The translations under genes and the position numbers were made by a program. The notes beneath the pieces are model-generated. The model saw only the letters and a list, made by a program, of their open reading frames with translations, had not been told where the DNA came from and made no database searches. Below are positions 25,773 to 61,360 of a stretch of DNA of 62,867 bases, one piece after another (position 1 is the first letter of the stretch; each line of letters opens with the position of its first letter). This stretch comes from a virus (Duplodnaviria; Caudoviricetes), in IMG/VR virus record IMGVR_UViG_3300024518_003743, positions 1-62,867 of that record. One strand, given 5' to 3'.

Positions 25773-25776
25773 AAAG

Positions 25777-25784
25777 CAAATCTA
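25777..25784 (-). promoter_or_regulatory. Bacteroidota -7 promoter (TAGATTTG), apparently leaderless
   Basis: TAnnTTTG followed after 4 nt by the ATG at 25772. Confidence 0.55.
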
Positions 25785-28700: not shown

Positions 28701-31700
28701 CGTCCTTAGTCGTTTGCTCCAAGCCTTTCTCTTTAATAATCAAATTGACCTCATCAACAGTGACGGCGTTCGAAATAGGGATGTATTTCTTCGCGTCTTC
28801 AGAAAGACCCTCCTTAATGTCTTCGCTTAGATTCTCGTCTTCGATTAGCCTTTCCGGAAAAGCTCTGTCTTTTGCTTTCGGCTCTTTGCCTGACTCGTCA
28901 ACGTCTTCCGTTGGGGACTCCTCTTTAACTGGTGCCTCAACAACGCCTTCGGCAACCGGCTCAGCGGCTGGCTCCTCTTTTATGAAAGCATCTTCCTTAG
29001 CGACTTGCCCTCTGTATGTGTTTTCGAACATCTGTTCAGATGCTTTCTGACCATTCTTAGAAAGGCCTTTGTACCATTCTGATTGACGGAGAGACTCAAG
29101 ACCCTTGTTTACCGCCTCAGAAACCTTCTGAGTAGCCTCAAGAGTTGTCGCCGCGATTTCAAGAGCGCCGTCGATCGCTCCTTTAAATAGCCCGGTTGGG
29201 TCAGACTTTAATCGGTTCATGTCGTTGAATGACTTCACGAACTTCTTGCTGCGCAGGAAATCTGCTGCCTGCTGAAGCTTGCCTGGGGCAACTTCCTCAA
29301 CTATCGTCTTGGGCGCCTTGACAGGCTTCACTACAGCAGCCTTAATTTCTTTGAATTGCTCACTAATATCTTCTTTCGAGATTCTACCGTCAGTAGCGGC
29401 CTCGATTCTTTCTGCAACAGTATTTTGAAGGTCTTTCGCTTTCACCCCTTCGTTCGTAGCATCTTGAGCCACCTCAACTACCGAATCAAATACAGCGGCA
29501 TTAGACAAAGGGGCTTGCGGGGAGCCTCCCATCTTCTCAACGGCTATCTTTAGGTTTTCTTCACCCTTGGCTTCCGCTACCTCTGCAGGGGGCTTCTCTG
29601 CGGCCTTAGCGTCCTCTTCTTTGATGGATGCAATCTCTCTCTCAAGAAACTCAACATTCTCCTTATTTCCGAACTCGCTTTCTTTTTCCACCTTCAAGTC
29701 TTCCTCAAGGGACTCGAGCAGCACTTGTCGAGGTGTCTTTTCTTCTGCCTCCTCTTTAGTCTCTTGCTCTTCTAGTACGGTCTCTTCGACTTCCTTTTCG
29801 GGTTGCTCGTCTTTGGTTTGCTTATCTGGCGTTTTGCCGGTTTTGGCGCTGTCCTTTTTGGGCTGTGCTTCTTGTTTGGCATCTTCTTTCTGTTTTGTTT
29901 TTTCCGCCTCAACGTCCTCCTCAGACTTCGCTTCTACGGTGTCTTCGGGAGATTTCACAAGGCCGGCCTCTTGCAGTTTTTTCATAACTGAATCAGAAGG
30001 GCTAGAAATGTCTAGCACCGACTCATTGTTCCTTATCGACTCAACAAACACAGGGTCGTCAAGCTTCTCGATGATCTCTTGCTCGCTGAAAAAGCTGTCG
30101 TTTATCTTGTATTCAGTTTCGGGCTTGTCTGAAATCACAACAGAGTCTCCCTTTTCTTTTACAGATGAGTCCCTATCAACAACCGCTTTAATTTCTTTGT
30201 CTATTGCGCCAACCTTCTCAGCTCGCTCCTGTTCCTTCTGCTCTTTGAAGGCGGGGTCAACATATTCAGAAGACTGCTTTTCAAGAAGCTCTTTCTTTTC
30301 CTGAACAAGGCCAAGCAATTCAATTTTCGCGTTGTCGCTTGCTTTGTCAGGCATGCCGTCAAAAATAGCTTTTGTCTCGTCAAGAATGTCAACAACGCTC
30401 TGGGCTTGTTCCGGAGTTATCTCCTCATTTAACAGCATTCTTTGAGCTTTGGCTTTCAGCTCAGGAATGGACTCCATTGACTCAAGCAAGGCAGCGCTGT
30501 TCAGCTTGCTTTTGGTGTTCGAAGAAATGGATCCAGGAGTTGAGGCCGTTCCGGTCAAAAGTGTCGTTATTAAAACCGTCTCTAATAGGTCCTCCGAGGT
30601 AAACTCATCATCAAAGGCTCTTCGGCCAAGGACGTTGTTTGCCATTACGTTCATCTGAGTCTCTGAAAGGCCCTGCATAATCTCCTGAAGGTTCTCCGCC
30701 TTTATCTCTCTAGACCACGTTTTAAAGGCCGCCGACAGCGCGTCTTGGGTAGACGCCCCTTTTTTAATGTTCTTTATTGTTCCAGAAACAATGTTCTTTT
30801 TTCCGACCAGCAACTGGTTGGGGCTTACAAGTTCTAGCAAACTTGTAGCCAAAGTGGTAGGAAGTGTATATGCTACCGCTTGGTCCTCAGTCAGCCCAGC
30901 ATCAATAGCCGCCTGATAGTTTTTAGCGTGCTGAAGATTGAAGCTTGAAGCGACAAGCCCAACGTTCCTTGCCTTTTCTTCTGACCCCAAAGCTTTTTTC
31001 AGCTTGGTCATTTTTCCAAACTGGGTTGCAGGGACTAGTAGTCCCGCCATGTCTGCTCCCGCGTACAGAGTTTTATTGATTACCCCTTTCCAGTTTACCG
31101 AACCGTCCTCGTTAAAGGTGTTCTTCAGGTCGGTTGGAATTAGGTTCTCAAACTGCTCGTCGTTTAAATACTTGTCAGACTGCTCTGCTATTTTGTCAAA
31201 AAAGTTTCCAATCTCAGCCGTGTTCTTTCCTGTGATTCCAAAAGACCTTGGAAGGGTTGAAAGACCGTGAGTTACAGAGGTAGCCGTTCTCTTCAGAGGG
31301 TTTCCTATGTTGATTTCCAGAAAGTGGTCCAGCGACTCTACGGGTCCCATTGCGCCGCTCTTGTACCGCTCGTGCTTTTCGTCGGTTATCTTCTGAAGTA
31401 ATTGCTGCTCCTCAATTTCTTCCCAATTATCCTCAATGAACTTAAGGTCTTTTCCGAGGTTACTTCTAACGTTTTCTGTGGCACCCATCTCGAGAAGGAT
31501 GTCAAACATTTGGTACTTCTGGTTGATTCGATCAATCTCCGCTTTAACCAGGTCAGACGTTGGTTCGTCGGGGCTTCCCGCAACTGACGCGGCACCAGAC
31601 TCAACTGCTGACAATGGAGAAAATGCGTTTGCCTGAGCAAGCTCTTTGGCTTTCTCTCTCTCAAGAATATTTCTTTGGTGGTCAAAAGCATTCATAGTGA

Positions 31701-34575: not shown

Positions 34576-35426
34576 TACAGTCCAAATGTTTGAGGAACGT
34601 CAATAGCAGGCGTAGCCGCTTGCTTATCAATACCTAAGCGAATGTTGTCAATCGTTTGGTTTTGAATCTCTTGTGCGTTCGGGTTAATACCAGGTGTCGC
34701 TAAAGGTGGAGCTCCAGCGTTTTCGCCCGCTCCTCCACCAAGGAGTCCAGACACGCTTTGAATGATGTTTCCTATGTCTCCAGCGACTCCGGTTGCTCCG
34801 GTTGCTCCGGCTGCAGGTGTGGCTGCGCTTGAGGCTGCTGGATTTTGGCCAGGTAAAGTTCCTTGGAGCGCTGCTAACGAGCCTAAGTTTTGTAAGGCGT
34901 CCGTTCCCGCCTGAGCAGAGGCCGCTTTGGCTCGGTTTTGATTAAGCAATCCGAGCTCTAATGTTCTTTGGCTTATTCTGGTTCCAAGCTGCTGAGTAAG
35001 CTGTTCTACGAAAGGAAGCCTTTGTTGTCCCTGAACTACCGCTTGGTTTGTAGCTGCCTGGGTTCCCTTTTGTGCTTTAATCAATGCGTTTACCGTGCTT
35101 CCCACATCTCCGCCTGTTGACCTAGCTATACGCCCTTGAGTTGTAGCCCCAACTTTCTGGGCCTCCCCAATGGCGCCTTGAGTGGCCGCGTCTGAGCCAG
35201 TAGAAATGTTTTTTCTAATCTGGTTAAGCTCGTTGATTCTTTGTTGCTCCAAAGGATCTACAAGCCCAGGAGCAAGCTGATTCGCTTTTCTGCCCTGAAC
35301 ACCAGATTCTATAAGGCCTCCAGCCGTCTGCCCAATCTGAGCTCCAACTGCTCCTCCAACGCCCGGTGCGATAGTTGTTCCAGCTACGCCTCCTAAAATT
35401 GCGCCTATTGATTGTCCGTTTGCCAT
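34575..35426 (-). CDS. internal virion / ejection (pilot-like) protein
   Basis: Gly/Ala-rich hydrophobic N-terminus, Gln/Ala-rich helices. Confidence 0.65.
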   Translation of the reverse strand: MANGQSIGAILGGVAGTTIAPGVGGAVGAQIGQTAGGLIESGVQGRKANQLAPGLVDPLEQQRINELNQIRKNISTGSDAATQGAIGEAQKVGATTQGRIARSTGGDVGSTVNALIKAQKGTQAATNQAVVQGQQRLPFVEQLTQQLGTRISQRTLELGLLNQNRAKAASAQAGTDALQNLGSLAALQGTLPGQNPAASSAATPAAGATGATGVAGDIGNIIQSVSGLLGGGAGENAGAPPLATPGINPNAQEIQNQTIDNIRLGIDKQAATPAIDVPQTFGL

Positions 35427-38400
35427 TACTTAATCGGTTTATATTGAAGAACAGTTTCTACAACCTTAAAGTCTTCCTCAAAAATATGAATTACTTTGCA
35501 GAATAGCAATCTAGCTTGTACCCGATCTCTGGTTGCTGAAACCGAAAGGTCCTTTCTAGGAATCTGCTGACCCCATCCGTCGTATTGCTTAAGATACAGC
35601 GGACCTTGAATTCCTGGGTCTAGTGCACAGACTAAATCTCTGTCCTCATCCAAAAACTCTATTCTACTTGGTTTTTGTTCGCCTCTCTTTCCGGTCATGA
35701 CCTCGAAGCGAATGTATTCTTTTTCTACGGCTGGTGAAGGGGAATAGTTCGTTATAAGCGAATATTCTATCGGGCCTCCATTTATTTCAAACCCTCTTTC
35801 GAGCTTGTAGGTCTCAAGACCTCTAAATCCGTACATGTCGTTGTCGCTGAACAGGTAGGTGTCGAACTTATAGTCAAACGACCCCAGCCAGTGATTAGTG
35901 TCTTGAGCAAACACAAACGTTTCCGAGTCTACCGAATCTCGCTCAGTTTCTCCTTCTACAAGAAATTCCGGAAGCCTCTGAGGGTCAAGCTGTAACCAAT
36001 ACTCATTGTGGTTATGGTTGACGCCTCCAGCAATGCGATCAAGATATCCAGCCCTCATTCTGATTAATACAGGGTTAAGCCTGGAGAAGTAGGTGTCCTT
36101 CGCTATGTCTTTTACCACGTTGCTCATTAGCCTATACACGGAGTGGTTGTTAGGAATGTAAAGAGCTTCTTGTTTAACTCTTCCGTCCTCAGTTATAATG
36201 TCCATGGTGCCTTCGCCCATTCCTCTCCACATTTCATCGCTAGAGCCAACCTCATGGTCTAGCCAGTACTGACCTCCAACAAACCTGTCAGAAGCAAGTG
36301 TTGATAAGTCGTTAGCCTCAAGGCTAGAAAGTATTGTTTTGTTGGTCAGGATAAGGCATATCCCTGACTCACAAATAGCGTACAGGTTGTCGCCCTTTCC
36401 TGGGGTTGTTGCATCCCAAGCTTTCTTGATTTCGCCGTCATCATCGTCTAGGTCAAATCGATTCAGCGAAAGGAAAGTCTTTAAACCGGGAGAGTCTTGT
36501 TGATTTATCGCTCTAGACAGGCTCCATGTGACTCCAGTACAGAAGTCGTTCTCCTCTTCGAATCCAAAGTCCGGCTTTGACAAGAACTCAATAGGCCCTC
36601 TAACAGCATAATCAAGATTGATGTTCTGCATGAATCTAAGACCTCCAAACTTCCAAATACTATATTCAAGAGGGTAGTCTTCGAAATAGTCTTCGAACAT
36701 GTTGTTGTCTGACGCAATATCTTCAATGACCCCGGTCGCGAAGCTTGAGTTGTCAAATCGATTCGGACGCATAATGTAGTGAGTCAGCGGGAAGTACTGG
36801 TCAGAAGTTGCCCCGTTGTGGGCATAGTGAACTGCCACCCGGCTTTCGCACGCGAACATAATGCACAGTTGTCGGATATACCCAAGGCTTCCCTTGTTTA
36901 TGTCCTGAATCTTGTTAATCCCTGTGGTTCTAGCAACGATGTACTGACGAGGGTTGATCTCGTACTTTCTAAACGGGAACCCAATGTTGAACACGAACTG
37001 AGTGTCTTCAGCGTTGTCTGAAGCATCTGCCTCACGATCGATTGGAGAGAAGATGGCTTCTCCTACCGTGCTATCTCCTCCGAATACTCGTATTGGCCGT
37101 CTATTGTCATACCTGACTAATATTTTCTGGTCTACCGTTGGGTAGAAATTTGGGACGTTGAATTCGACTGTAAACGCCGTGTCTCCTGCGTTTGTGTGCG
37201 TGTACAATCCAACAACCTCGTTCCCAAGTGCTGCGGCATAGAATCCGTTTGTTGTAATGTCTGTTAAGATTGCTGTTACCTGAGCAGCCGTCAAGAACGT
37301 GCTATCCATAAACACTTCAATGTTTCCGGCTCCGTCTTGGAGGTAGACAAACACCTCATCAGCAGCTCTTGGACCTGTAGAAGACAAATCAGGAATACAG
37401 TCTTCCCACCTTTCGTCTACAAGCTCAAAAAATTGGTCAGGAGTTCCGTCAGCTTGGCCGATAATGCTCTCTACCTTCTGGTAGTGCCCTGTTCCGTAAT
37501 ACTGGTCAATATTTTGATCGATTACATTCTTTCCGTCCTGAACGATGTTTATGATGTACATCGGCTCAGTAAAATCCTTCAGTCCAGCATCGTCGAAGTC
37601 GTTGTTTCCGGTTCCGCCAGAGCCTCCGGCATTGTACACGTTTCCTGTAAGTGAAAGCTCGTAGTACACACCTCTGCCCTCCGTAACAGAAGCTATGCTG
37701 TCAATACTTATAAGAGTATCTCCTCCGTCAGGACCAACAAAAGCTCCTCCGCCAGCAGCGTGAGAATTTCTGTACTTGTTGTATGCTACATATCTGTTTC
37801 CTCCAGAACCAACACCCATTCCCGGGTCTTCTCCTGGGTTTATCTGGCCTTCGTCATGAAGCACCCGCGCGTAGGTAATCATATCTACAAGCCTGTCTCG
37901 TGCCGAGAGCAGTGAGTTCTCTTCAAATGAATACACCTCCGAGAAGAAGCCCAGAGGAGAGACCACCTGAACGCTGTAGTTCTGAGGGTTGCTCGAAATA
38001 TCATCAATAACCGACTGGCTGATTATTCCAGCCTCAATGTCTGGTGAGAAGAACCAAAACTTGTCTTGGTCTTTCGTGGCCGCCGATGCGTTACCAGCAG
38101 CATTAAAGTCTCCTTGGTTTAGGGCATACGATCCAATTCCTTGGCATACAACCCTCCCTGCAGGTGCTGTTCTAACTACTGAAAATGCTTTTGCCCACGA
38201 CGGAAGATTGCTAATACCTCCAATGGCAACTCCATGGGCATAATAGTTTGGCGCGAAGCCCTCAGGGTTGTACGCTCTAGTTACCGGACCAGCATCTGCC
38301 TCGAAATTGACTTGGTAGTTGTGGTCTCCGGTTGAGTCGTTCTGGTCGGTAGGCCTGTATGGGTCATAGCCAATTTCATCGCCACCAACGAATAGTCCAT

Positions 38401-39895
38401 GCCCAGAATCCGGACACCCAAGGCTATTTACCTTTCCTTGAGACTTTGATCCGTCGTCTAGTATGTTTTGGAACCCACATTTGTCCGTCTTACTGACAGC
38501 ATCTTCCAAATCGAATATCTCATGCGTCTGAGTTACGGCACTCTGCAGGTTTGCTGCCTCGGCAGTTCCGAAATACGAGAGCAGTTGAGAGTCGACGTCT
38601 GCCTCAGCTCTTCTGTTCGGTATTTGGAAGTTCTGAATCCCAGCATCGTCCTCGGCAAAACCTCGACCGCCAAGTGCGTCGAATAGGTTTACAGCAAAGC
38701 TGAACCTCTCTCCGCCGGTGTAGTTTTTGTAGTACGTGTGATTCACCGGGTCGTTGTGCCCTGCTTTTCCGAGCTTCTGAACGATTGGGAAAATCTTCTT
38801 GCCATTGAACTCGTCAAATACAAGGTTAGTCTCTTTTGAAGCGGTGCTGTAGTTCATTAGAACTATCTTCTTGTCGTGGTATCTGATTGCTTTCGCTTTC
38901 TCGATAAACGACAATTCGCTTTCTCCTTCTCCGTCAGCAAGGGTGTCTTCTACGTTTGATTGAATCGGGTCAACAAACTCTCGAACAGATATCTCCCCTG
39001 GAGAAACCTCAAGTTTTGCGATTACCTCTCCTTGCGGAACAAAGTCAAGACCTCCAGCAGCCTGATAGGACACTCGACGGATCTCAATAAAATCATAGTT
39101 AACCAGATTCGTAATTCGAAACTTAAGCTTAATCCCGAAGCTCGTTGGAGCTGTTACGTCAGGACTGTCGCCATAACTCTTCGTATACGGGTACTGGTTG
39201 CTTCCTGTTCCCGACCCTTGAAGCACAGGAATTGGAGGGGTTTGGTGCCCCCAGTTTGTTCGGTCTCCTTCGTCATTAACGTATCTAAGAGAGTACTGAT
39301 AAGAGCCTATAGGAAGTCCGCCTCCGCCCCCGACATTCTCAAGACCTGTAAAAACAGGGATGTCAAGTGGAGAATCTAGATTTACCGTGTATAAAGCTGG
39401 ATTGAAGTTCGTGAAATACTTGTCAGGGTCTAGCGTGAGTGAGTCGATGATGTCCTGAATGTTGAATATCATCGGAGTCGTGTTATTGTCGGTGATATAC
39501 CACTCTCCTCCTTTACAGTTCTCGTTTCTGTCACACTGGATAGGGAAGTCCACTAGCCAAGGCATGTCTGGGGACTGACCCATTATAACGCCGTCGATAC
39601 GGATGATTGGAGCCTCTGCCCCATTTCTATCCACCCAGATTTCAACAATGTTCTTGTTAATATCTTTTTCACCTATGCAAACCCAATCGCCAGGAATGTT
39701 CTGAGCTGGGAACTCAACCTCTTCTCCGCGAATCTTAACGTGTGATCGTTTTCCGCCAGTAGAATCGGATATGCGACCGTTCTTACTGTCGTAGTATTCT
39801 CCGTCATTATCGGCACCAGAAAGCTCAGGGTCAATGTCAACATTCGCCCCTTTCCAGTTCGATTTTGCGTCTTTTGGATGGTGTTCCGTCTTCAT
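35426..39895 (-). CDS. tail nozzle/muzzle (P22 gp10 / crAss muzzle-like) protein
   Basis: 1489 aa, beta-rich; GGGGLPIGSYQYSLRY...TNW motif; position after ring proteins. Confidence 0.7.
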   Translation of the reverse strand: MKTEHHPKDAKSNWKGANVDIDPELSGADNDGEYYDSKNGRISDSTGGKRSHVKIRGEEVEFPAQNIPGDWVCIGEKDINKNIVEIWVDRNGAEAPIIRIDGVIMGQSPDMPWLVDFPIQCDRNENCKGGEWYITDNNTTPMIFNIQDIIDSLTLDPDKYFTNFNPALYTVNLDSPLDIPVFTGLENVGGGGGLPIGSYQYSLRYVNDEGDRTNWGHQTPPIPVLQGSGTGSNQYPYTKSYGDSPDVTAPTSFGIKLKFRITNLVNYDFIEIRRVSYQAAGGLDFVPQGEVIAKLEVSPGEISVREFVDPIQSNVEDTLADGEGESELSFIEKAKAIRYHDKKIVLMNYSTASKETNLVFDEFNGKKIFPIVQKLGKAGHNDPVNHTYYKNYTGGERFSFAVNLFDALGGRGFAEDDAGIQNFQIPNRRAEADVDSQLLSYFGTAEAANLQSAVTQTHEIFDLEDAVSKTDKCGFQNILDDGSKSQGKVNSLGCPDSGHGLFVGGDEIGYDPYRPTDQNDSTGDHNYQVNFEADAGPVTRAYNPEGFAPNYYAHGVAIGGISNLPSWAKAFSVVRTAPAGRVVCQGIGSYALNQGDFNAAGNASAATKDQDKFWFFSPDIEAGIISQSVIDDISSNPQNYSVQVVSPLGFFSEVYSFEENSLLSARDRLVDMITYARVLHDEGQINPGEDPGMGVGSGGNRYVAYNKYRNSHAAGGGAFVGPDGGDTLISIDSIASVTEGRGVYYELSLTGNVYNAGGSGGTGNNDFDDAGLKDFTEPMYIINIVQDGKNVIDQNIDQYYGTGHYQKVESIIGQADGTPDQFFELVDERWEDCIPDLSSTGPRAADEVFVYLQDGAGNIEVFMDSTFLTAAQVTAILTDITTNGFYAAALGNEVVGLYTHTNAGDTAFTVEFNVPNFYPTVDQKILVRYDNRRPIRVFGGDSTVGEAIFSPIDREADASDNAEDTQFVFNIGFPFRKYEINPRQYIVARTTGINKIQDINKGSLGYIRQLCIMFACESRVAVHYAHNGATSDQYFPLTHYIMRPNRFDNSSFATGVIEDIASDNNMFEDYFEDYPLEYSIWKFGGLRFMQNINLDYAVRGPIEFLSKPDFGFEEENDFCTGVTWSLSRAINQQDSPGLKTFLSLNRFDLDDDDGEIKKAWDATTPGKGDNLYAICESGICLILTNKTILSSLEANDLSTLASDRFVGGQYWLDHEVGSSDEMWRGMGEGTMDIITEDGRVKQEALYIPNNHSVYRLMSNVVKDIAKDTYFSRLNPVLIRMRAGYLDRIAGGVNHNHNEYWLQLDPQRLPEFLVEGETERDSVDSETFVFAQDTNHWLGSFDYKFDTYLFSDNDMYGFRGLETYKLERGFEINGGPIEYSLITNYSPSPAVEKEYIRFEVMTGKRGEQKPSRIEFLDEDRDLVCALDPGIQGPLYLKQYDGWGQQIPRKDLSVSATRDRVQARLLFCKVIHIFEEDFKVVETVLQYKPIK

Positions 39896-51856: not shown

Positions 51857-52120
51857 ATGAGTGCACTTGCAAAACCACTTATCCATAGCGTCAACGTGCT
51901 TTCTGGGCAATCAGACCCAGTAAATGTTGAAGAAATACAAACCATGACGAGAGTTGTGAATGACAATCCAGGTATTAACACTACTTCGGAATTTCATTTA
52001 GCTTTCGCAATGAGAGACCACGACCAAAACCCTAAGTCGGTGACTTGGAAGTTTGCGGACGAGACAGCTCTTGACGCAGCTTACGCAGCTATCTTGGCAT
52101 TAGCCTCGACTGCAGTCTAA
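51857..52120 (+). CDS. hypothetical protein, paralog of 51576..51836
   Basis: Same shared pattern. Confidence 0.65.
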   Translation: MSALAKPLIHSVNVLSGQSDPVNVEEIQTMTRVVNDNPGINTTSEFHLAFAMRDHDQNPKSVTWKFADETALDAAYAAILALASTAV

Positions 52121-52144
52121 TTTGGAAAAGCCATTTATTTGACA

Positions 52145-52255
52145 TACATTTGTTGTCACTTGTGTTTTTTAGCGAGAACATTTCCCCCTGAAAGGCTTCG
52201 GCCTCAAGGGGGTTCGCTAAAAACAAAGATAACACTATGTTACTCGCTAAGAAAA
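52145..52255 (+). promoter_or_regulatory. promoter (TACATTTG) plus structured 5' leader with two alternative pairings
   Basis: Arm 52163-52181 pairs with either 52214-52225 or the start-codon region 52237-52254; internal AGGC-TTCG-GCCT hairpin. Confidence 0.6.
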
Positions 52256-53031
52256 TTAAAACACATAGCCTCCTGCTCTCCACAATCGTGGAAATGAACG
52301 AGTTAAGAACCTACTCCTATTTTCTTAGATTCAAGTCATTATTCAATTCTTCGGCATTGAACAAAGGCAATCGCGCGAAACTATCTAGGCTCACCGGCCT
52401 TAGTGACAAGACCTGCAGAGTGTATGTAGGCAAGATGAAGCGACTAGGATGGATCAAGCAGAACGGAAGCGATTACGTTTTCATCAGCTACAAGGAAATG
52501 TTCATCAAGTACAAGCTGAACAAGAAACAATTCAATTACCACAAGATAATAAATGTAAGCTCCGACGACAGTACGGATTTGCTCATAACAAAATTAGCCT
52601 CCATTCTGTTGGAGGCTAACATTGATCGACAAATCTCTACAATAGCGGTCCGTGCAGAAATACACAAACCAACTCACTCACAATCGAGCGTTGGAAGACT
52701 TGCCACCAAATATAAGAATAAAGGGTGGAACTACAAGTATTCAACCAATGTGAGTGCGAGATTCAATGATGTTGTGCTTTCATGCAAGGGATTCGGTGGA
52801 CTTATAGGCAGAGGAAGGACGGCTGGGAAGCTCCTAAAGAAGAAACTCGTAGAAATGGAGTGTATCACCGTTGAAACGAATCAAGTGCTTCTGAGGGACT
52901 TTAAAGGGCGTTACGATTTATATCTTCTCATGAAAGCGAGGTCCAAAACTCCGGAACGCATGTTCTGGTACAGTGGAAAAGCTTGGAATCGTGAGCCGGA
53001 TTTCATCGCCTCTTTTAATTATATTGCATGA
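52237..53031 (+). CDS. basic winged-helix DNA-binding protein (possible replication initiator)
   Basis: LSRLTGLSDKTCRVYVGKMKRLGWI HTH; second HTH-like LSCKGFGGLIGRGRTAG...LVEMECI. Confidence 0.55.
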   Translation: MLLAKKIKTHSLLLSTIVEMNELRTYSYFLRFKSLFNSSALNKGNRAKLSRLTGLSDKTCRVYVGKMKRLGWIKQNGSDYVFISYKEMFIKYKLNKKQFNYHKIINVSSDDSTDLLITKLASILLEANIDRQISTIAVRAEIHKPTHSQSSVGRLATKYKNKGWNYKYSTNVSARFNDVVLSCKGFGGLIGRGRTAGKLLKKKLVEMECITVETNQVLLRDFKGRYDLYLLMKARSKTPERMFWYSGKAWNREPDFIASFNYIA

Positions 53032-53048
53032 AGAAGAAAGTATGAACT

Positions 53049-53073
53049 TGCGGTTTCTTACCGCATACATTTA
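53049..53073 (+). promoter_or_regulatory. palindrome TGCGGT-N5-ACCGCA abutting promoter-like TACATTTA
   Basis: Perfect 6-bp inverted repeat directly before a -7-like element. Confidence 0.4.
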
Positions 53074-53090
53074 ACAGAAAAAAAGAACAG

Positions 53091-53522
53091 ATGAAACTAT
53101 TCAAATTCGGAGCCCACAAGAAGCGGGCAGACAAAGCAGAAGTCATGGTGTACGAACTACGTCAGGAGCTTGTGCGTATTCTCAAGGAAAGCTACGAACT
53201 AGGTGAAGGGCTTAGAGACGAAATATTCATTCCTGAATATCTTGGCTTCCAAGAATCAACAATGGACAATGAAGAGTCCGGAACGGTCCGCATATACTCT
53301 CGAGACGGGTTCAATATCTCCCGAGCATCCCAAGGCAATACCTGGATCATGCTTCACCCGAGCGGGGCGAAGGTCTCCTTCACCATCGAAAAGATGTTCG
53401 ATGCAATCACCGTGCTCAAGTCGCTTGGCTTGAACATCTCTATCACGGACTACCTCAAGCAGACTCCAATGACGGACAAGTTTAATCTACTACTACATGG
53501 ACCAGATGCAGGAAAAGATTGA
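53091..53522 (+). CDS. hypothetical protein
   Basis: 143-aa ORF. Confidence 0.6.
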   Translation: MKLFKFGAHKKRADKAEVMVYELRQELVRILKESYELGEGLRDEIFIPEYLGFQESTMDNEESGTVRIYSRDGFNISRASQGNTWIMLHPSGAKVSFTIEKMFDAITVLKSLGLNISITDYLKQTPMTDKFNLLLHGPDAGKD

Positions 53523-53715
53523 GGAGCAGAAGAGGAAGAATAACGGCATCCCTGGAGTTGTTCAGCAACACGTCGAGGGCGTGGCGAATAGAGACGGGGC
53601 GTTTGTGCCCATGGCTATTACCATCGGCTACTTCGATATCACAACCGAAGTACCTAGAATTCAAGTAGATATTAATTTTCACCCTTCATTAGAAGGATTA
53701 ATCGAAGTATCATGA
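53497..53715 (+). CDS. hypothetical protein
   Basis: 72-aa ORF overlapping neighbours. Confidence 0.5.
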   Translation: MDQMQEKIEEQKRKNNGIPGVVQQHVEGVANRDGAFVPMAITIGYFDITTEVPRIQVDINFHPSLEGLIEVS

Positions 53716-54218
53716 AAAGAGAATTGCTAATATTTTTAGGAGGAGCGACTTGGGCTATTTTTGTCTTCTGGACGTTCGGATTGCTGGTAGGACCAGAAAA
53801 GGAAATAGTTCACAAGGAGCCTGGACACTTTGTGGAAACGCAAGTTATACACGACACATTGTTCATAGTCAAGGAATGGCCACCGGTTTTGCAACTGACA
53901 GGGACAACCTATCAGCCTACAGTGGCTCAGTGCGACAGCACTCCATTCAACACTGCTGACGGTTCGTTCATCAACGCCGTGGAGCTCCAGTATAGAAAGC
54001 TGAGGTGGTGCGCCGTAAGCAGGGACCTGCTCAAGCACAAAGGTGGCCCGTTCGAATACGGCGACACGATTACCGTTGTGTGCGAAGAACAGTTTTACTG
54101 TGATAGGTGGGTTGTTCACGACTGCATGGCAGCTAAGTACAATAACTGCATTGATTTTTTAACCTGGTTCGACCGTCCGAGAATTGGTCGGGATCCAAAT
54201 ATACTCGTGTTCAAATGA
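53712..54218 (+). CDS. membrane-anchored 3D-domain (MltA-like) protein
   Basis: N-terminal TM; TTY...QCDSTPFNTADG, AVSRDL, YGDTI, VHDCM, IDF. Confidence 0.75.
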   Translation: MKRELLIFLGGATWAIFVFWTFGLLVGPEKEIVHKEPGHFVETQVIHDTLFIVKEWPPVLQLTGTTYQPTVAQCDSTPFNTADGSFINAVELQYRKLRWCAVSRDLLKHKGGPFEYGDTITVVCEEQFYCDRWVVHDCMAAKYNNCIDFLTWFDRPRIGRDPNILVFK

Positions 54219-54457
54219 GTAAGGAAGAGCATAAGCTACCCTTGCCCTATATCCAGCTATGGCTATCCAAGACAGAGAAGGAAGGTAGAGGGTTTGCGGT
54301 ATCGGATGAGATGATGCCTCACCTAGACGAGGCGCTATTCTTTGGAAAGGATGACGCGAATCGCATTATATCAACACTGATGAAGCAAAGGGAGTGGAGA
54401 TTCCTCCCCTGCACGGACATCGAGCGTATTTTATTCACGAACAACAAAATGTTTTAA
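54215..54457 (+). CDS. hypothetical protein
   Basis: 80-aa ORF, ATGA overlap. Confidence 0.55.
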   Translation: MSKEEHKLPLPYIQLWLSKTEKEGRGFAVSDEMMPHLDEALFFGKDDANRIISTLMKQREWRFLPCTDIERILFTNNKMF

Positions 54458-54458
54458 T

Positions 54459-54773
54459 ATGGAATGTGTATTCTGCGGGGACGACTCGCACAGCTACAGG
54501 GACTGCCCGGAGAAGATAACTCCTCACTCGTCCCACATCTACGCGACTCCCATGCGAGACCTCGAGAGAAAGAAGGGGGATTTGATTCTCCCGCCGGACA
54601 AACGAACTACCGCGCCGAAAAGAGCTCGCATAATCTCCGTGGATCCGAGAATAGAGGATTGCGAAGTGAAAGAAGGGGACGTAATACTATATCCAGCGAA
54701 CCTCGCCTGGAAAATGAATGATCGACTGTTTCGAATTTTCGAAGCAAACATAATGGGGATAATACCGGAATAG
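54459..54773 (+). CDS. GroES-like co-chaperonin with N-terminal CCHC zinc knuckle
   Basis: CVFCGDDSHSYRDC (CX2CX4HX4C); KKGDLILP...IISVDP...VKEGDVILY...EANIMGII. Confidence 0.7.
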   Translation: MECVFCGDDSHSYRDCPEKITPHSSHIYATPMRDLERKKGDLILPPDKRTTAPKRARIISVDPRIEDCEVKEGDVILYPANLAWKMNDRLFRIFEANIMGIIPE

Positions 54774-54774
54774 T

Positions 54775-54987
54775 ATGAGCAAAGATTGGATCCAAATAGA
54801 AACATGCAAGCAGGCAAACGACCGAGTAGCGGCAATGGTTGACATTGAAGCAATGAAGGCCGAGAACCAGATGATGGTACACCTCGGAAAGAAGCCTAAA
54901 TACGAATGGGATGACTTCAACGCCGTGAAGGTGCGGTACGACCTAGACTACACTGGACTTCTGAACAAGAAGAAGAAACTAGAGTAA
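54775..54987 (+). CDS. hypothetical protein
   Basis: 70-aa ORF. Confidence 0.55.
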   Translation: MSKDWIQIETCKQANDRVAAMVDIEAMKAENQMMVHLGKKPKYEWDDFNAVKVRYDLDYTGLLNKKKKLE

Positions 54988-54990
54988 TGC

Positions 54991-55013
54991 AAAAAGGGGC
55001 CTAAAAGGGCCCC
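54991..55013 (-). terminator. intrinsic terminator
   Basis: GGGGCC-CTTTTA-GGCCCC-TTTTT. Confidence 0.75.
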
Positions 55014-55124
55014 AGCTTGGTCGTGTTCCAGTCCTAGTGCTCAACCTCGGGTTTGACTTTGAAATCTTACCTCGGGAGCTCCGGTGTTTTTCCACCGCTG
55101 ATCGCTTTCGCATCCACAGCTTAC
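54991..55124 (-). ncRNA. candidate ~130-nt structured small RNA
   Basis: Promoter-like TATATTCG (55127-55134), hairpins GC-GAAA-GC and CGGTG-GAAAAA-CACCG, own terminator. Confidence 0.5.
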
Positions 55125-55139
55125 CACGAATATACAAAT

Positions 55140-55167
55140 AAAAAAGCACCAACCAATGGCTGATGCT
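55140..55167 (-). terminator. intrinsic terminator of tmRNA coding piece
   Basis: AGCATCAGCC-ATT-GGTTGGTGCT followed by a T run. Confidence 0.75.
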
Positions 55168-55309
55168 TCTTCTACAGACGTGTCGTGCCTATGGGACGTT
55201 TCTACGCCACAGCTCTAAGCTGAGGTGAGAAAAGAGGTATTACTTTTCCTGTTATAGGATCAGACTCTCGAAGTATACATTTATAATGCAGTCAAAACCA
55301 GTCGGCCCC
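55140..55309 (-). ncRNA. ssrA: tmRNA coding piece of a permuted two-piece tmRNA; tag (A)GKVIPLFSPQLRAVA
   Basis: Starts GGGGCCGACTGGTTTTGAC at 55309; resume context TATAACA|GGA; tag frame 55249-55202 ends GCT GTG GCG TAG. Confidence 0.85.
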
Positions 55310-55393
55310 AGTATAATCGCTTTACGTCATTACCTTTACACTCTTCCACAATGGAGATGAGGTTTGTCCTAGACGGGCAATACTGTTTTCTTG

Positions 55394-55450
55394 TGGAGCC
55401 GGAGGGTATCGAACCCTCGTCCAAACACCGTTTCTTCTCAAACGAATCTG
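55394..55450 (-). ncRNA. ssrA: tmRNA acceptor piece of a permuted two-piece tmRNA
   Basis: GGAC-GAGGG-TTCGATA-CCCTC-CGGCTCC-A; pairs with GGGGCCG to give a G3.U70 alanine acceptor stem. Confidence 0.85.
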
Positions 55451-55453
55451 GTG

Positions 55454-55461
55454 CAAATATA
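55454..55461 (-). promoter_or_regulatory. Bacteroidota -7 promoter (TATATTTG) for tmRNA precursor
   Basis: Exact TAnnTTTG 3 nt before the first paired segment of the acceptor piece. Confidence 0.7.
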
Positions 55462-55467
55462 ATAAAG

Positions 55468-55538
55468 TTCTCCGAGATAGATTCGAACTACCGTTTTCTG
55501 GCCCAAAACCAGACGTCCTGCCCCTAGACGACCGGAGA
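55468..55538 (-). tRNA. tRNA-Gln (anticodon TTG)
   Basis: Acceptor TCTCCGG/TCGGAGA, anticodon arm TCTGG-TTTTGGG-CCAGA, T arm GGTAG-TTCGAAT-CTATC; CCA not encoded. Confidence 0.9.
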
Positions 55539-55544
55539 GTTATG

Positions 55545-55618
55545 TCGGGGTGACAGGGATCGAACCTGCGACCTGATGCTCCCAAAGCACCCGCGCTACC
55601 AAACTGCGCTACACCCCG
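55545..55618 (-). tRNA. tRNA-Pro (anticodon TGG)
   Basis: Acceptor CGGGGTG/CACCCCG, anticodon arm GGTGC-TTTGGGA-GCATC, T loop TTCGATC; CCA not encoded. Confidence 0.95.
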
Positions 55619-55630
55619 ATTTACTACAAC

Positions 55631-55659
55631 AAAAAAGCCCCACTATAAATAGCAGGGCT
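55631..55659 (-). terminator. attenuator terminator upstream of tRNA-Pro/tRNA-Gln
   Basis: AGCCCTGCTAT-TT-ATAGTGGGGCT-TTTTT, about 12 nt before tRNA-Pro. Confidence 0.8.
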
Positions 55660-55687
55660 CCAAAGTATTGTATGCGCAACTGCCTTC

Positions 55688-55738
55688 CTATTCGGTAGTG
55701 GGTTGCGGTTGTTGAGTTTCAAATGAAATCTTCTTCAT
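55688..55738 (-). CDS. leader peptide MKKISFETQQPQPTTE (Gln/Pro-sensing attenuator)
   Basis: ATG AAG AAG ATT TCA TTT GAA ACT CAA CAA CCG CAA CCC ACT ACC GAA TAG; ATG 4 nt after promoter-like TACATTAG (55743-55750). Confidence 0.75.
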   Translation of the reverse strand: MKKISFETQQPQPTTE

Positions 55739-55751
55739 GGGGCTAATGTAC

Positions 55752-55823
55752 AAAAAAAGCCCCACATTCCCATGCGAGGCTTTTAAAATGATCGATAGTA
55801 AGTAGGCCAATACCGTTTGCGAC
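55752..55823 (-). ncRNA. candidate ~70-nt small RNA
   Basis: Promoter TACATTTG (55828-55835); terminator AAGCCTCGCAT-GGGA-ATGTGGGGCTT plus T run (55752-55784). Confidence 0.5.
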
Positions 55824-55851
55824 AAGACAAATGTAGTAAACTTTTCTTTAC

Positions 55852-55925
55852 AAAAAGAAACCCCTCTCCGAACAAGTCAGAAAGGGGTGTCGATTGAGGG
55901 CCCCGTGGGTGGGGCCTTTCACACA
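55852..55925 (-). ncRNA. candidate ~70-nt small RNA
   Basis: Promoter-like TACATTTA (55929-55936); hairpin GGCCCC-ACCCAC-GGGGCC; terminator ACCCCTTTCTGA...TCGGAGAGGGGT-TTCTTTTT. Confidence 0.5.
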
Positions 55926-55961
55926 CGGTAAATGTACGGAAATTTTCTTATCTTACACCTG

Positions 55962-56156
55962 ATGGCTACTTCACAAAATCTTCGACCAATATGCGTTTAC
56001 TGCGGTGAACCGGTCGCCCTGGCTTTAGTGAAGGATGGAAACAGACCTCCTGAGGGAGATAATTTCCTAGACTGGCACCATGTCAAGCATACATGTGAAG
56101 AGTCGGAGCAAGCCTTAAAGATCCGGAACGCTGGGAAGCCGCTTAAGGTTGTTTAG
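55962..56156 (+). CDS. small Zn-binding hypothetical protein
   Basis: CVYC...HTC; ATG at 55962. Confidence 0.5.
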   Translation: MATSQNLRPICVYCGEPVALALVKDGNRPPEGDNFLDWHHVKHTCEESEQALKIRNAGKPLKVV

Positions 56157-56430
56157 GCTCTTCTTCGAAAATTATAGTCGTTGTTCTGGTTACGCTGACA
56201 AGCTCAGCTTTAAGAAGCTTGTTGTAATTCGCATTCACCCCGCATGTGTTTTTTGGGTCGTACGTCATGTCGGTGGTCTTCTTACAGAATTCCGGATCGA
56301 TTATGTCGGCCCTATCGAAAGAAACGAAATCAGGAGAGTCATATCCGTCAACCCCCCAGTACTTACCTTCGAACTTAGCTGCCACGCCTTTCTCGATGTA
56401 TACGCTCTCAAACAGCATCTCCTTGCTCAT
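56143..56430 (-). CDS. hypothetical protein
   Basis: 95-aa ORF ending the - strand accessory operon. Confidence 0.55.
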   Translation of the reverse strand: MSKEMLFESVYIEKGVAAKFEGKYWGVDGYDSPDFVSFDRADIIDPEFCKKTTDMTYDPKNTCGVNANYNKLLKAELVSVTRTTTIIFEEEPKQP

Positions 56431-56614
56431 CCTTTACAATTTTAATAGTGAATCCTATCTTCTCCAGCCCGTTGTACATCTTGCACAGTGGCATCTCCGA
56501 CCCTTTCAGGTAGGAATTGATCTGCTGTCGGGACACTCCGAAAATCTTCGCGAGCTCGACATTGTTCATTCCTCGCTTCTTCTTGAGCGATCTAAGTATT
56601 TTTCTAGTTGTCAT
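56408..56614 (-). CDS. XRE/Cro-type HTH regulator
   Basis: LKKKRGMNNVELAKIFGVSRQQINSYLKG. Confidence 0.8.
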   Translation of the reverse strand: MTTRKILRSLKKKRGMNNVELAKIFGVSRQQINSYLKGSEMPLCKMYNGLEKIGFTIKIVKDEQGDAV

Positions 56615-56862
56615 TATTTTTTGTTCCAGTCCATGAAGTCTTCAAAGGTTACTTCGTTGACGTTTGTAATATCGATTGTCTTCCAGGGAACCCCAAGGTA
56701 TGCCCCCTGGTCTATGGCGAACTTAACAGAGCTTATGTATGGAGCTCCTTTTTTCGGATCGTTCATTGGAGCATAAGTTATGCAGTCTCCGTCATAGAAC
56801 ACCCTCTCTCCTCGAGAATTTAGAGTAGTGTAAAATACAATAAAATATCTTCGCCTCTTCAT
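56614..56862 (-). CDS. hypothetical protein
   Basis: 82-aa coupled ORF. Confidence 0.55.
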   Translation of the reverse strand: MKRRRYFIVFYTTLNSRGERVFYDGDCITYAPMNDPKKGAPYISSVKFAIDQGAYLGVPWKTIDITNVNEVTFEDFMDWNKK

Positions 56863-57401
56863 GACATCACCCCCACTTGTTTAAGAACCCGCTTGAGTTC
56901 GGATTTGTTTTTGATCACTCCCTCGAAAACCTTGTCCCTGATTTTCCAGTTTTTGCCTGTCTTCGAAATCTTGACAATGTTTCTTTCGTACATCGAAATA
57001 AGGAAATCGTCATCGTTCAAATCGACTGCATAAGACCCTTCAAACGGAGCTCCGGCTGGGAAGCCTCCCAAATTAAGGATGTCTGCTTCGTCCAAGTACT
57101 TGACGCGGATAGCATCATTTTCAACAGCTCTTACAACATCGCCTATGTACATTTCAGCCGGATCATCGAAATGAAGCTCCCCAGGGAAATCCGGGTCTTC
57201 TAGCCTCTTTCTGAACTCAGCCTTTTTCCATTCTTTTTCGTATGTAATCGGGAGGGTCATGTGAGCCATAACCCCCAAGTAAATCCGAGGCCTGTACTCG
57301 AACTCGAATCCGGGATGGAACTCCCCAATCTCTGGCACATAGTACCTCGAATCAATACTTGCTTTTGTGGCTGGAAGGCCTTCTTTTTCTTCTTTTTTCA
57401 T
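56859..57401 (-). CDS. phage hypothetical protein
   Basis: YYVPEIGEFHPGFEFE...RVKYLD...FEGVIKNKSELKRVLKQVG; ATG at 57401. Confidence 0.65.
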   Translation of the reverse strand: MKKEEKEGLPATKASIDSRYYVPEIGEFHPGFEFEYRPRIYLGVMAHMTLPITYEKEWKKAEFRKRLEDPDFPGELHFDDPAEMYIGDVVRAVENDAIRVKYLDEADILNLGGFPAGAPFEGSYAVDLNDDDFLISMYERNIVKISKTGKNWKIRDKVFEGVIKNKSELKRVLKQVGVMS

Positions 57402-57560
57402 ATTTTTTTTCTTCGTGAGAAACTTCACTAATACTTTTATCTTCTTCCGCGTGAGCACCGGCTTCCGTCGAGAATGTTCTCATTGGATTCTTCATCTGTA
57501 TCCCTCCGAGGGATCTCACATAAAACTCTTTTTTTTCTTCGTCAGTTATTTTATCATTTT

Positions 57561-59617: not shown

Positions 59618-59666
59618 TGTAACTAGTTTTTTGGTTACAGCTAATGTAACCATTTTTTTAGTTACA
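59618..59666. promoter_or_regulatory. two palindromic operators TGTAAC-N10-GTTACA
   Basis: 59618-59639 and 59645-59666, around promoter-like TACATTAG (59641-59648, - strand). Confidence 0.65.
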
Positions 59667-59743
59667 TAACAACTGTATAGGGAATATTCTGTCCGGAGGG
59701 TGAAAAGTAGATCGTGTGTGTGGGGTATAGTATAGATAAGACT

Positions 59744-59804
59744 GCCCCCACCCCCTAACGAAAGGAAAACAGCAAACGCATAGAGAGGGGGCGGGGGGTG
59801 CCCC
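59744..59804. other. G/C-tract inverted repeat in probable genome-end region
   Basis: CCCCCACCCCCT ... AGGGGGCGGGGGG in a long non-coding, divergent-transcription gap. Confidence 0.35.
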
Positions 59805-60194
59805 TTGTTATATATCCGGTTTGGTTCGTGTGTTGCTCTATGCTCTACGCCTTGAGGCTCTAAGCGCTGGTGTCGGTCGGTGCGCTGTGTGTTTTTTTGG
59901 TGGCCTGTGTGCTCTGTGCCTTGCTAGGGTAGGGGATAGGTGACCTGCCAACCTGGCCTATTTAACATAATAAATATTATGAGACAGTATAGGCGCCTAG
60001 TATCTGAGCAGTGAAGGAAAGCGGGTGTATTTGTGTGCCCAACATAATAAACCCTACCTTCTACCCTCTCGAATTCCTTGGTATCACTGCCTTTGGCGTT
60101 ATCCGTTTGTAGTCGTTTGTAGTCCTCTGCTACTGTGGCTACTATTTAGAATGGCTCTAAATAAGCACCTATCAATCATTTTATTGTTGTTTTG

Positions 60195-60226
60195 TTTGGT
60201 GTTCTGGATTGTTTGCTGTATGTTTG
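60195..60226 (+). promoter_or_regulatory. full Bacteroidota promoter (TTTG-N20-TATGTTTG) for early transcript
   Basis: -33 TTTG at 60195-60198 and -7 TAnnTTTG at 60219-60226. Confidence 0.7.
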
Positions 60227-60241
60227 TATTGTTCGATTGAG

Positions 60242-60256
60242 ACACACACACACACA
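60242..60256 (+). repeat. (AC)n microsatellite
   Basis: acacacacacacaca just after the predicted start site. Confidence 0.8.
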
Positions 60257-60406
60257 GCCACTAGTATAAAGGCACGAGTCAATACAACTGCAAGACTTAC
60301 TAGGGCGATAGGACTAAGACACAACGAGGCGATGGCCTTGAATACCGTTAACACTATCAGATTGAGTGTCACACAATCCAACAGGTACACGAATGATGTT
60401 AGAATC

Positions 60407-60920
60407 GTTCTTTGACATAGATTAACAGAAGCGTAGACCGCTATAGAGGAAGCCTCGCCGCTACAACTCTATAAGAAGCGTAAAACGTTAGTGACTGGGC
60501 ATGGCAGCTAACTACCTGCAGGCAATGCAACGAAGCACCCTAAAGACGTCCCAGAAGCTACAGAGCTGAGTACTTGATACTCTTAATAACTAGCTATAGT
60601 GTTGCCTCTGTTAATTGTTAGTGAGTTGGTAGAAACTTGGTAGAGTCAATCTTAAAGCTTTACCGCGCCTAGGGTCATTCCAAAGCGCTCCAAAATTAAC
60701 CCCGATGGGGGCAACACGTCAAGACAGCAGGCGCGTACCTAGTACGCCACCACTTGAGGCGAAGGAAGCCAACTGCACGAGTATAAACACAGACCGCGAA
60801 ACTATGGAACTATCCTAATAAGGGTCTCTAAACTAAACTAGTAAACCGTTGACATCTCTAATGTAATAGAGGAAAGAGAAGGCGTTACCGCGCGAGGGTT
60901 CGAATCCTGAACAACGGCTA
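60407..60920 (+). ncRNA. candidate large multi-domain structured ncRNA
   Basis: boxA-like GTTCTTTGACAT at 5' end, four nested helical domains, 3' GGTTCGAATCC T-loop, no long ORF. Confidence 0.6.
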
Positions 60921-60996
60921 TAAACAACATGTATGCACTCGACTCCAACTGATCTCAAAAACCAGGGGAACGTGCGTCCATTCAAATCTATACACC

Positions 60997-61116
60997 ATGT
61001 CGAAAGATAAATTGACGAATGCCATTGCTAAACTAAGCAAGGCTAACAAGAAATGGCCATGCAATGACCGCGAGGCAAAAATTAACCGCCTAAGGGCTCA
61101 ACTGCAAAACGCATGA
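60997..61116 (+). CDS. small basic early protein (39 aa)
   Basis: MSKDKLTNAIAKL...; ATGA-coupled to next ORF; translated by hand. Confidence 0.55.
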   Translation: MSKDKLTNAIAKLSKANKKWPCNDREAKINRLRAQLQNA

Positions 61117-61211
61117 GATTGACGCGTAGAGAAAAAGCACAGGCACTAAGAGAGGCCGTAATATTAACGGGCGGGCTCCTGCTCTCCCTTGTCCTAATCA
61201 TAGCACTATGA
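61113..61211 (+). CDS. small membrane peptide (32 aa)
   Basis: MRLTRREKAQALREAVILTGGLLLSLVLIIAL; ATGA overlaps on both sides. Confidence 0.55.
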   Translation: MRLTRREKAQALREAVILTGGLLLSLVLIIAL

Positions 61212-61360
61212 AACCATATCTAGTCATCATACGCCTACCAGAAGGAAGGCAAGCCCGTAAATACTCAGGGCCAGCCGAATCGAAACACCACGCAATTTCA
61301 CAAGTCTACGCGCAGTGGTGCCACATACAACCAAGTTATTCTAAATACACCACGATATGA
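61208..61360 (+). CDS. small early protein (50 aa)
   Basis: MKPYLVIIRLPEG...; ATGA overlaps on both sides. Confidence 0.55.
   Translation: MKPYLVIIRLPEGRQARKYSGPAESKHHAISQVYAQWCHIQPSYSKYTTI

Follow-up and report, generated by a model that had tools for sequence, protein, structure and literature searches.

Leader-peptide transcription attenuators are known for the amino-acid operons trp, his, phe, thr and ilv, and the tRNA region of phage T4 carries tRNA genes beside short stable RNAs of unknown role. According to the available parts of PMC9004378, phages of marine and aquatic habitats commonly carry two-piece transfer-messenger RNAs (tmRNAs), which account for 53 of 133 unique phage tmRNA structures (50 of the 53 being aquatic), and the available parts of that paper and of PMC11915505 name the permuted form for Alphaproteobacteria, some Beta- and Gammaproteobacteria, and Cyanobacteria. 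The subject of this study is an island of RNA genes at 54991-55936 on the - strand of the IMG/VR virus record IMGVR_UViG_3300024518_003743, the whole of which (62,867 nucleotides (nt); completeness estimate 87%) was analysed and is called the window below. The island contains five -7-like promoter boxes, five intrinsic terminators (T1 to T5), tRNA-Pro(UGG), tRNA-Gln(UUG) and a circularly permuted tmRNA, and the tRNAs are preceded by a 16-codon mini open reading frame (mini-ORF). On balance, we lean towards explaining the whole as an accessory RNA-gene island made of separately promoted modules, and not as one system.

The mini-ORF segment (unit 3) resembles the attenuators of amino-acid operons in having a short ORF with the regulatory codons, an intrinsic terminator before the genes and a hairpin that involves the codons. 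Unlike those attenuators, it precedes tRNA genes and not genes of biosynthetic enzymes, its ORF is probably leaderless (ATG 4 nt after the -7 box) and bivalent (Gln, Pro), and its antiterminator is weak. As in the tRNA region of phage T4, tRNAs and (here candidate) short RNAs share a compact non-coding stretch, but each unit of the island has a promoter-like box and a terminator of its own and a tmRNA is included. The tmRNA is like those of the Methylophilales phage Melnitz and of pelagimyophages, as far as the available parts of PMC9004378 and, for the model RF04321, of PMC11915505 describe them: the acceptor piece comes first, the tRNA-like domain has a G:U pair at acceptor position 3, the tag frame is short, the phage is marine and without a phage SmpB, and tRNA genes, which often adjoin such tmRNAs, adjoin it here. 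It differs from the tmRNAs covered in those parts in that its phage appears to have a host of the Bacteroidota type, its coding piece is compact at about 170 nt, no glutamine riboswitch was matched by Rfam in the island at E values up to 10, and the tag begins with Gly-Lys and ends with Arg-Ala-Val-Ala, not Leu-Ala-Ala. The two-piece type of tmRNA is thus already known, and the new element of the locus is the codon-matched, probably leaderless leader before tRNA genes.

The identification of the tmRNA was based on several kinds of evidence. RF04321, the Rfam model of permuted tmRNAs, matched 55433-55279 with 46.5 bits (cut-off 47) and an E value of 1.6e-7, and the alpha, beta and cyano permuted tmRNA models of Rfam also matched the window copy; the tmRNA match was obtained at the Rfam E-value threshold, whereas the gathering threshold listed only the tRNAs. 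Model R1, a sequence model built from the coding pieces of nine relatives with the window excluded, gave a single match in the 62,867 nt, at 55309-55195, with an E value of 2.1e-12 that is rough because the calibration was shortened. The acceptor piece (55394-55449, -) has its T arm and 3' acceptor strand at 55422-55394, and its 5' end probably lies at 55449. It is followed by an 84-nt intervening segment (55310-55393, -), which would be removed on maturation and has no notable fold (z 0.03), and by the coding piece (55140-55309, -) with the 5' acceptor strand GGGGCCG, the tag frame and the terminator T4. The acceptor stem GGGGCCG/CGGCUCC forms 7 of 7 pairs and the T stem 5 of 5, and the G3:U70 pair present in the window tmRNA is kept in 11 of the 11 tabulated phage copies. 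The tag frame (55249-55202, -) reads GKVIPLFSPQLRAVA, followed by a stop codon.

Copies of this tmRNA were found in related loci, which are designated by L numbers, with RF04321 scores of 40 to 67 bits. The tags read DKVINMFSPSLRAVA in L194, GKTIEMFNQQLRAVG in L061, GKLVNLFGNYSPLKAVA in L113 (identical in L108 and L109), GKLINLFESPFGGARAAA in L110, GKVINLHKEIPQLQAAA in L114 and GKTINMVERPQELRLAA in L145. Related tags occupy the same position in 10 other copies, the stop codon being ca. 105-117 nt away from the 5' end, and synonymous changes occur among them. Of 10 other phage copies, 7 share with the window a -7 box that stands 31-39 nt before the GGAC motif; this distance is 31 nt for the window as well as for L113 and L114, and ranges from 34 to 39 nt in L145, L194, L122 and L061. 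The octamer of the window tmRNA promoter box (box 4, 55461-55454, -; TATATTTG) recurs in L113 (31 nt), L194 (35 nt) and L061 (39 nt), while the tmRNAs of L114, L122 and L145 have other TAnnTTTG boxes at 31-37 nt and that of L110 has TAATTTAG at 31 nt.

Several points weigh against the identification. The RF04321 score is 0.5 bit below the curated cut-off, ARAGORN made no tmRNA call, and CCA is not encoded in the acceptor piece. The pseudoknot PK1 is not established: only a small hairpin, picked out by eye at 55291-55249, appears in the folds, and no pseudoknot tool was used. SmpB (PF01668) was not found in this 87%-complete record. The acceptor and T-stem table of the relatives was drawn with a pattern that demands pairing, so that compensatory changes are partly built in, although the Rfam and R1 matches are independent of this pattern. 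Over 53500-57500, the contigs of four DNA runs were identical to the window across the island and therefore gave no covariation, and no RNA runs matching 54900-56100 were listed. Even so, the Rfam and R1 matches, the conservation of the tag and the G3:U70 pair make the window tmRNA a solid assignment, and the permuted tmRNA claimed in an earlier note on this DNA is borne out by RF04321, R1, the acceptor pairing and the tag frame. Judged from these comparisons, the window tmRNA belongs to a tmRNA lineage carried by Bacteroidota-type phages. No published report of such a two-piece tmRNA lineage in Bacteroidota phages was found, and the supplementary phage-tmRNA tables of PMC9004378 and PMC11915505 might contain members.

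It is proposed that the tmRNA would function as described below. Transcription would start from its own conserved -7 box and stop at its own terminator. Host tRNA-processing enzymes would cut the transcript into an acceptor piece of ca. 55 nt and a coding piece of ca. 170 nt, the CCA-adding enzyme would complete the molecule, and alanine would be charged through G3:U70. Together with host SmpB, which is assumed, the tmRNA would then free ribosomes stalled on broken mRNAs, and the rescue would append the lineage-specific tag.

Three further observations concern the tmRNA genes. In the spacer of the window copy (55310-55393), 14 nt are perfectly complementary to a - strand transcript at about 21042, a position within the gene 20985-21662; ca. 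0.03 matches of this length are expected by chance for the spacer query, which was one of five queries. In L145 (3723-4244, -), the spacer between the tmRNA halves is 230 nt long and contains a tRNA-Met (ARAGORN, 3927-4002), so this tRNA would come out of the excised segment. In L194 (298-833), the tmRNA, whose tag is the closest to that of the window, is followed by two tRNA-like genes with no terminator between, one of which has an odd two-base anticodon according to ARAGORN.

The reading of the boxes depends on the host. The window sequence occurs in seawater metagenome runs, five of which may be where it came from, and its proteins include a portal, a large terminase (TerL), a helicase, an exonuclease and a sliding-clamp-like protein. 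TerL had 401 homologs at E <= 1e-10, the best of which shows 65% identity and carries the source label of a Kordia sp. metagenome-assembled genome (MAG); the four TerL relatives among one-genome-per-species contigs were binned as Kordia, Flavobacteriia, Bacteroidetes and Ignavibacteriae MAGs. Upstream of the genes of the window, no Shine-Dalgarno sequence can be seen. TAnnTTTG, which we take to be the -7 element of Bacteroidota promoters, stands upstream of the genes at 15050, 25772, 45658, 51485 and 52237. On the coding strand, 7 of its 23 occurrences lie inside non-coding DNA, which makes up 7.2% of the total (binomial P 9e-4); with the island excluded, the count is 6 of 22 (P 0.0017). From the absence of Shine-Dalgarno sequences, the enrichment of TAnnTTTG and the binning of the TerL relatives, we take the host to be Bacteroidota-like and interpret the boxes as -7 elements of that phylum. 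A scan for sigma-70 type promoters found sites, none of them at the unit starts. The phage is most likely a marine phage of roughly 70 kb with a member of Bacteroidota as its host. A point against this assignment is that it is based on metagenomic binning and motifs. When TerL was used to query viral contigs for close relatives, one 5.5-kb contig was obtained, in which the upstream DNA is absent; the neighbouring 104-aa and 199-aa proteins as queries gave no close relatives among the viral contigs. The MAG contigs with TerL relatives (L204-L207) contained no tmRNA, and one of them had a tRNA-Met.

Against this consensus, the five boxes of the island are of unequal quality. Box 2 (55835-55828, -; TACATTTG) is a perfect TAnnTTTG, and its octamer also stands before the + gene block at 52145, before the tRNA-Phe in L186 and before the tmRNA of L122. 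Box 3 (55750-55743, -; TACATTAG) is a TAnnTTAG variant, box 1 (55936-55929, -; TACATTTA) departs from the consensus in its last base, and box 5 (55134-55127, -; TATATTCG) departs at position 7, so that the strict consensus is matched by only two of the five, boxes 2 and 4. The box 1 octamer recurs upstream of the + gene at 53091; comparison gave no support for box 1 as the promoter of a small RNA (sRNA), nor for box 5. A relaxed motif covering the five boxes has 28 matches across the whole - strand, but it was derived from these same five sites, and the local excess is therefore post hoc. As for the terminators, a scan of 54000-57000 found 11 terminator-like sites as compared with 2.9 +/- 1.5 in shuffled sequences. 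It flagged T1 (55888-55852, -), T3 (55661-55631, -; 12-bp stem and U6, -16.1 kcal/mol, 12 nt upstream of tRNA-Pro), T4 (55172-55140, -), which ends the tmRNA coding piece, and T5 (55013-54991, -), which ends unit 5. T2 (55784-55752, -; 13-bp stem and then a U run) was missed by the scan and seen in the fold. The tRNA-Pro(UGG) gene lies at 55544-55618 (-; Rfam 63.4 bits) and the tRNA-Gln(UUG) gene at 55467-55538 (-; Rfam 51.6 bits), both being called by ARAGORN as well. All boxes, terminators and RNA genes that the earlier note had placed on the - strand were thus located, its tRNA pair was confirmed, and the arrangement it described was also found, with boxes 2-5 standing directly behind a preceding terminator or tRNA (0-20 nt) and the scan finding no terminator between tRNA-Gln and the tmRNA. 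As for the note's short transcripts, the boxes are putative start points.

The mini-ORF of unit 3 (55688-55738, -) would encode MKKISFETQQPQPTTE followed by a stop codon, and its ATG lies 4 nt after box 3. It contains the codons CAA CAA CCG CAA CCC (QQPQP), which match both downstream tRNAs, Gln and Pro. In a leader hairpin (55675-55707, -), CGCAAC in the Pro/Gln codons pairs with GUUGCG, and the stop codon lies in the loop. Five-residue stretches made up entirely of Q and P occur 2 times among 125,706 six-frame 5-mers, QQPQP being one of them, and at least 5 Q/P among 15 sense codons has a P of 0.0054 (binomial, with the phage's own usage). A parallel was found in L130, the terminase of which is 46% identical: here TATCTTTG is followed by 4 nt, an ATG, a 25-codon frame with HTKLQQPKPL, a terminator and an array of tRNA-Pro(UGG), tRNA-His(GUG), tRNA-Leu(UAG) and tRNA-Gln(UUG). 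CAA CAA CCG is identical and in frame in the window and L130, at 24 and 30 nt from the ATG, respectively. The same arrangement of box, 4 nt and ATG also opens a 179-aa gene at 25772 (25772-25784, -), behind a perfect TAGATTTG box; as this gene starts 4 nt after the box, its mRNA is probably leaderless. In L190 and L122, a box stands 5 nt before the 5' end of tRNA-Met, from which it follows that transcription probably starts at or next to the AUG and that the mini-ORF message would be leaderless. With one independent parallel in L130, attenuation is a fair hypothesis, and unit 3 is most likely a leader-peptide attenuator.

On this hypothesis, the tRNA-Pro/tRNA-Gln operon would consist of the promoter box 3, the leaderless 16-codon ORF and the strong terminator T3 ahead of the tRNAs. 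Slow reading of the Gln and Pro codons would let more transcripts pass T3 and yield both tRNAs and additional tmRNA precursor; the sequence past T3 runs uninterrupted into the tmRNA, with no terminator before T4, so that transcripts past T3 would include this precursor, as the earlier note had proposed. That unit 3 actually works in this manner, as a leaderless bivalent attenuator in which stalling at Gln and Pro codons raises read-through of T3 and with it tRNA-Pro, tRNA-Gln and the tmRNA precursor, is put forward only tentatively and is, in our judgement, rather unlikely. The folds weigh against it: the terminator of the window (-16.1 kcal/mol) is more stable than the best antiterminator duplex (-8.7 kcal/mol), and it persists in the minimum-energy fold whether a ribosome is placed at one of the five Q/P codons or at the stop codon. 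The two structures lie closer together in L130, at -13.7 kcal/mol for the duplex and -14.9 kcal/mol for the terminator, and one of its six stalled states no longer forms the terminator. In addition, a strict pattern of leader and tRNA-Pro found only the contig of L130 in the viral collection, leaving one leader homolog; the mini-ORF is absent at the other tRNA loci of the clade that were read, four of which have a box or a gene, and one a terminator, directly before the tRNA; and box 3 is off consensus. A literature search for an attenuator of tRNA genes found no published case. Of the attenuated tRNA pair claimed earlier, the terminator between the nearest promoter and the tRNAs and the codon-matched mini-ORF common to the window and L130 were found, and attenuation is plausible, although the weak antiterminator and the persistence of the terminator in the folds tell against a classical switch.

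One alternative is that unit 3 is no sensor. The mini-ORF would then be a chance frame, or unit 3 an untranslated leader or sRNA, T3 would be an insulator or a leaky terminator that acts constitutively, and the tRNAs would be made by unregulated read-through followed by processing. The terminator that persists in every constrained fold of the window, the weak antiterminator, the single leader homolog, the lack of a mini-ORF before the other tRNAs read in the clade and the departure of box 3 from the consensus all agree with this explanation. It leaves unaccounted for a rare Q/P run that exactly matches the two following tRNAs, a CAA CAA CCG that stays in frame in L130 despite the different distance from the ATG, a box-to-ATG spacing that is common to the window and L130 and also starts a real gene, and the near-isoenergetic antiterminator of L130. 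We hold this alternative to be a serious possibility, although somewhat short of an even chance.

Units 1, 2 and 5 were claimed in the earlier note to be sRNAs. Each consists of a box, 75-135 nt and a terminator, and a locus with a box, a short RNA and a terminator directly after the tmRNA is also found in L061. Unit 1 (55852-55927, -) comprises a hairpin (55916-55899) and T1 and folds better than shuffled sequences (z -3.79), but it overlaps the upstream region of a real + gene, the ORF 55962-56156. Unit 2 (55752-55826, -), of about 75 nt with T2, also folds better than shuffles (z -1.89), and with its perfect box and strong terminator it is the best sRNA candidate. Unit 5 (54991-55126, -), of about 135 nt and ending in T5, folds no better than shuffles (z -0.77), and boxes 1 and 5 are off consensus. 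In a blastn search against 206 other loci, units 1, 2, 3 and 5, the tmRNA spacer and the + ORF gave 0 matches, only the tRNAs and parts of the tmRNA being matched, and an exact 29-nt string of unit 1 was found nowhere in the viral contigs. Rfam searches at E values up to 10 returned only chance-level hits far under the cut-offs for units 1-3 (isrJ, Phe_leader, suhB, NsiR1) and none for unit 5. Complementarity of units 1, 2 and 5 to the rest of the genome reaches 10-12 nt at most, which is the level of chance.

Two of the three terminators have simpler explanations as operon ends. The - strand operon ending at 56143 meets its first terminator in T1, which probably terminates this operon, so that unit 1 is a candidate sRNA or just an operon end; T5 probably prevents - strand transcripts from running on into the convergent + genes, and unit 5 may be a spacer or an sRNA candidate. 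It is possible but doubtful that units 1, 2 and 5 yield genuine small RNAs, trans-acting or structural, each from its own promoter, and the claim of three sRNA products could not be upheld, as these units have no homolog, no target above chance and no Rfam family. Small ORFs in these units (GTG, TTG and ATG frames) were considered as genes and rejected, since the frames run through the terminators. One such frame in unit 5 (54979-55113, -) has 44 codons, is very basic, passes through T5 and reaches a stop only after the U run, with no Pfam match; a transcript ended at T5 would therefore have no stop codon, and the frame is probably due to chance.

According to the earlier note, the five units together form one RNA-only system that senses stalled translation, renews the supply of tRNA and releases ribosomes, and that plausibly counters host nucleases which cut tRNA or mRNA. 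The units are contiguous, the tRNAs and the tmRNA have no terminator between them, the leader is matched in its codons, the tmRNA adjoins tRNA-like genes in L194 and L122 too, and phage tRNAs as an answer to tRNA-targeting defences are a published idea (PMC10264068, in its available part). However, the components occur apart in relatives. Among 43 whole records of terminase relatives, RF04321 was found in 7 (3 of them above the cut-off), a tRNA model in 11 and both in 3; four of the 7 records with the tmRNA have no tRNA match, and one of these four is 100% complete. In L113, L110 and L114, the closest tmRNA-bearing relatives of the window, the tmRNA stands alone between two small genes and the gene preceding the terminase. 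The record of L130 (50% complete), with its leader and tRNAs, gave no tmRNA match. These findings indicate that tmRNA and tRNAs are modules gained and lost separately, and they do not support a single system of sensing and rescue or an anti-defence role. Furthermore, conservation and predicted targets are both lacking for units 1, 2 and 5, a conserved promoter serves the tmRNA separately, and no context of defence or anti-defence genes was seen. The comparison of synteny thus speaks against one integrated system, which we regard as improbable. That the tmRNA-like sequence is a dead fragment, such as an attachment site of the phage or part of a host ssrA gene acquired on excision, is hardly credible: although integration at the 3' ends of tmRNA genes is common (PMC11915505 and PMC9004378, in their available parts) and many viral contigs contain the 3' end only, the window has both halves in permuted order with a paired acceptor, a conserved tag frame and promoter distance and a terminator, RF04321 had no match in a Bacteroidota genome included as a control in the same search, and the available part of PMC9004378 describes two-piece genes for other phyla only.

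The island is bordered by an ORF of 64 aa (55962-56156, +) that is divergent from unit 1 and rich in Cys and His (CxxC ... HxxxxC). It belongs to no Pfam or PHROG family, and as a query against metagenome contigs it gave only L104, an unrelated high-GC contig with no tRNA. Over 56066-56187, a single variant contig from seawater differs from the window at 12 sites, and of the 12 variant positions listed at 56096-56129, 8 are third codon positions; by this bias, which is the available test, the ORF is real. A 340-nt contig from X10, a sediment run, shows no difference from the window over exactly 55828-56095, and the seawater variant diverges from 56096 on, which suggests a recombination joint inside the 64-aa ORF.

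Some other features of the window were also observed. Homologs of the small gene 51857-52120 lie upstream of the tmRNA and on the same strand as the terminase in L113, L114 and L110, whereas in the window this gene is on the strand opposite to the terminase (51857-54987, +, compared with L113 3204-3744); the segment from the terminase to the island looks inverted or rearranged in the window. The 104-aa protein at 54459-54773 (+) has a weak GroES/Cpn10 match (Pfam 19.7 bits, under the cut-off) and an N-terminal CxxC ... C. The structural block contains giant ORFs at 25795-32898 (2367 aa) and 35426-39895 (1489 aa) on the - strand. A 1.7-kb stretch (59654-61356) has no ORF of at least 90 aa on either strand and contains a (TG)n-like run and G-rich hairpins; an origin, a genome end and some other kind of non-coding region are possible readings of it.

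As they stand, the proposed sRNAs add little to the finding. The two-piece tmRNA occurs in phages whose likely hosts have a one-piece tmRNA, and its tag does not end in Leu-Ala-Ala, which puts the fate of the tagged proteins in question. Phage tRNA and tmRNA genes are usually seen as passive supplements to the translation machinery of the host. If the mini-ORF does gate the genes behind it, phages would measure the speed of decoding and respond with the matching tRNAs and, here, with a ribosome-rescue RNA too. One sensor would then raise both the supply of tRNAs and the capacity for ribosome rescue, a control logic that is unpublished for tRNA and tmRNA genes, and leader-peptide attenuation would be extended from amino-acid supply to tRNA supply. 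This would also provide a testable link between the tRNAs of phages and the attacks of their hosts on translation.

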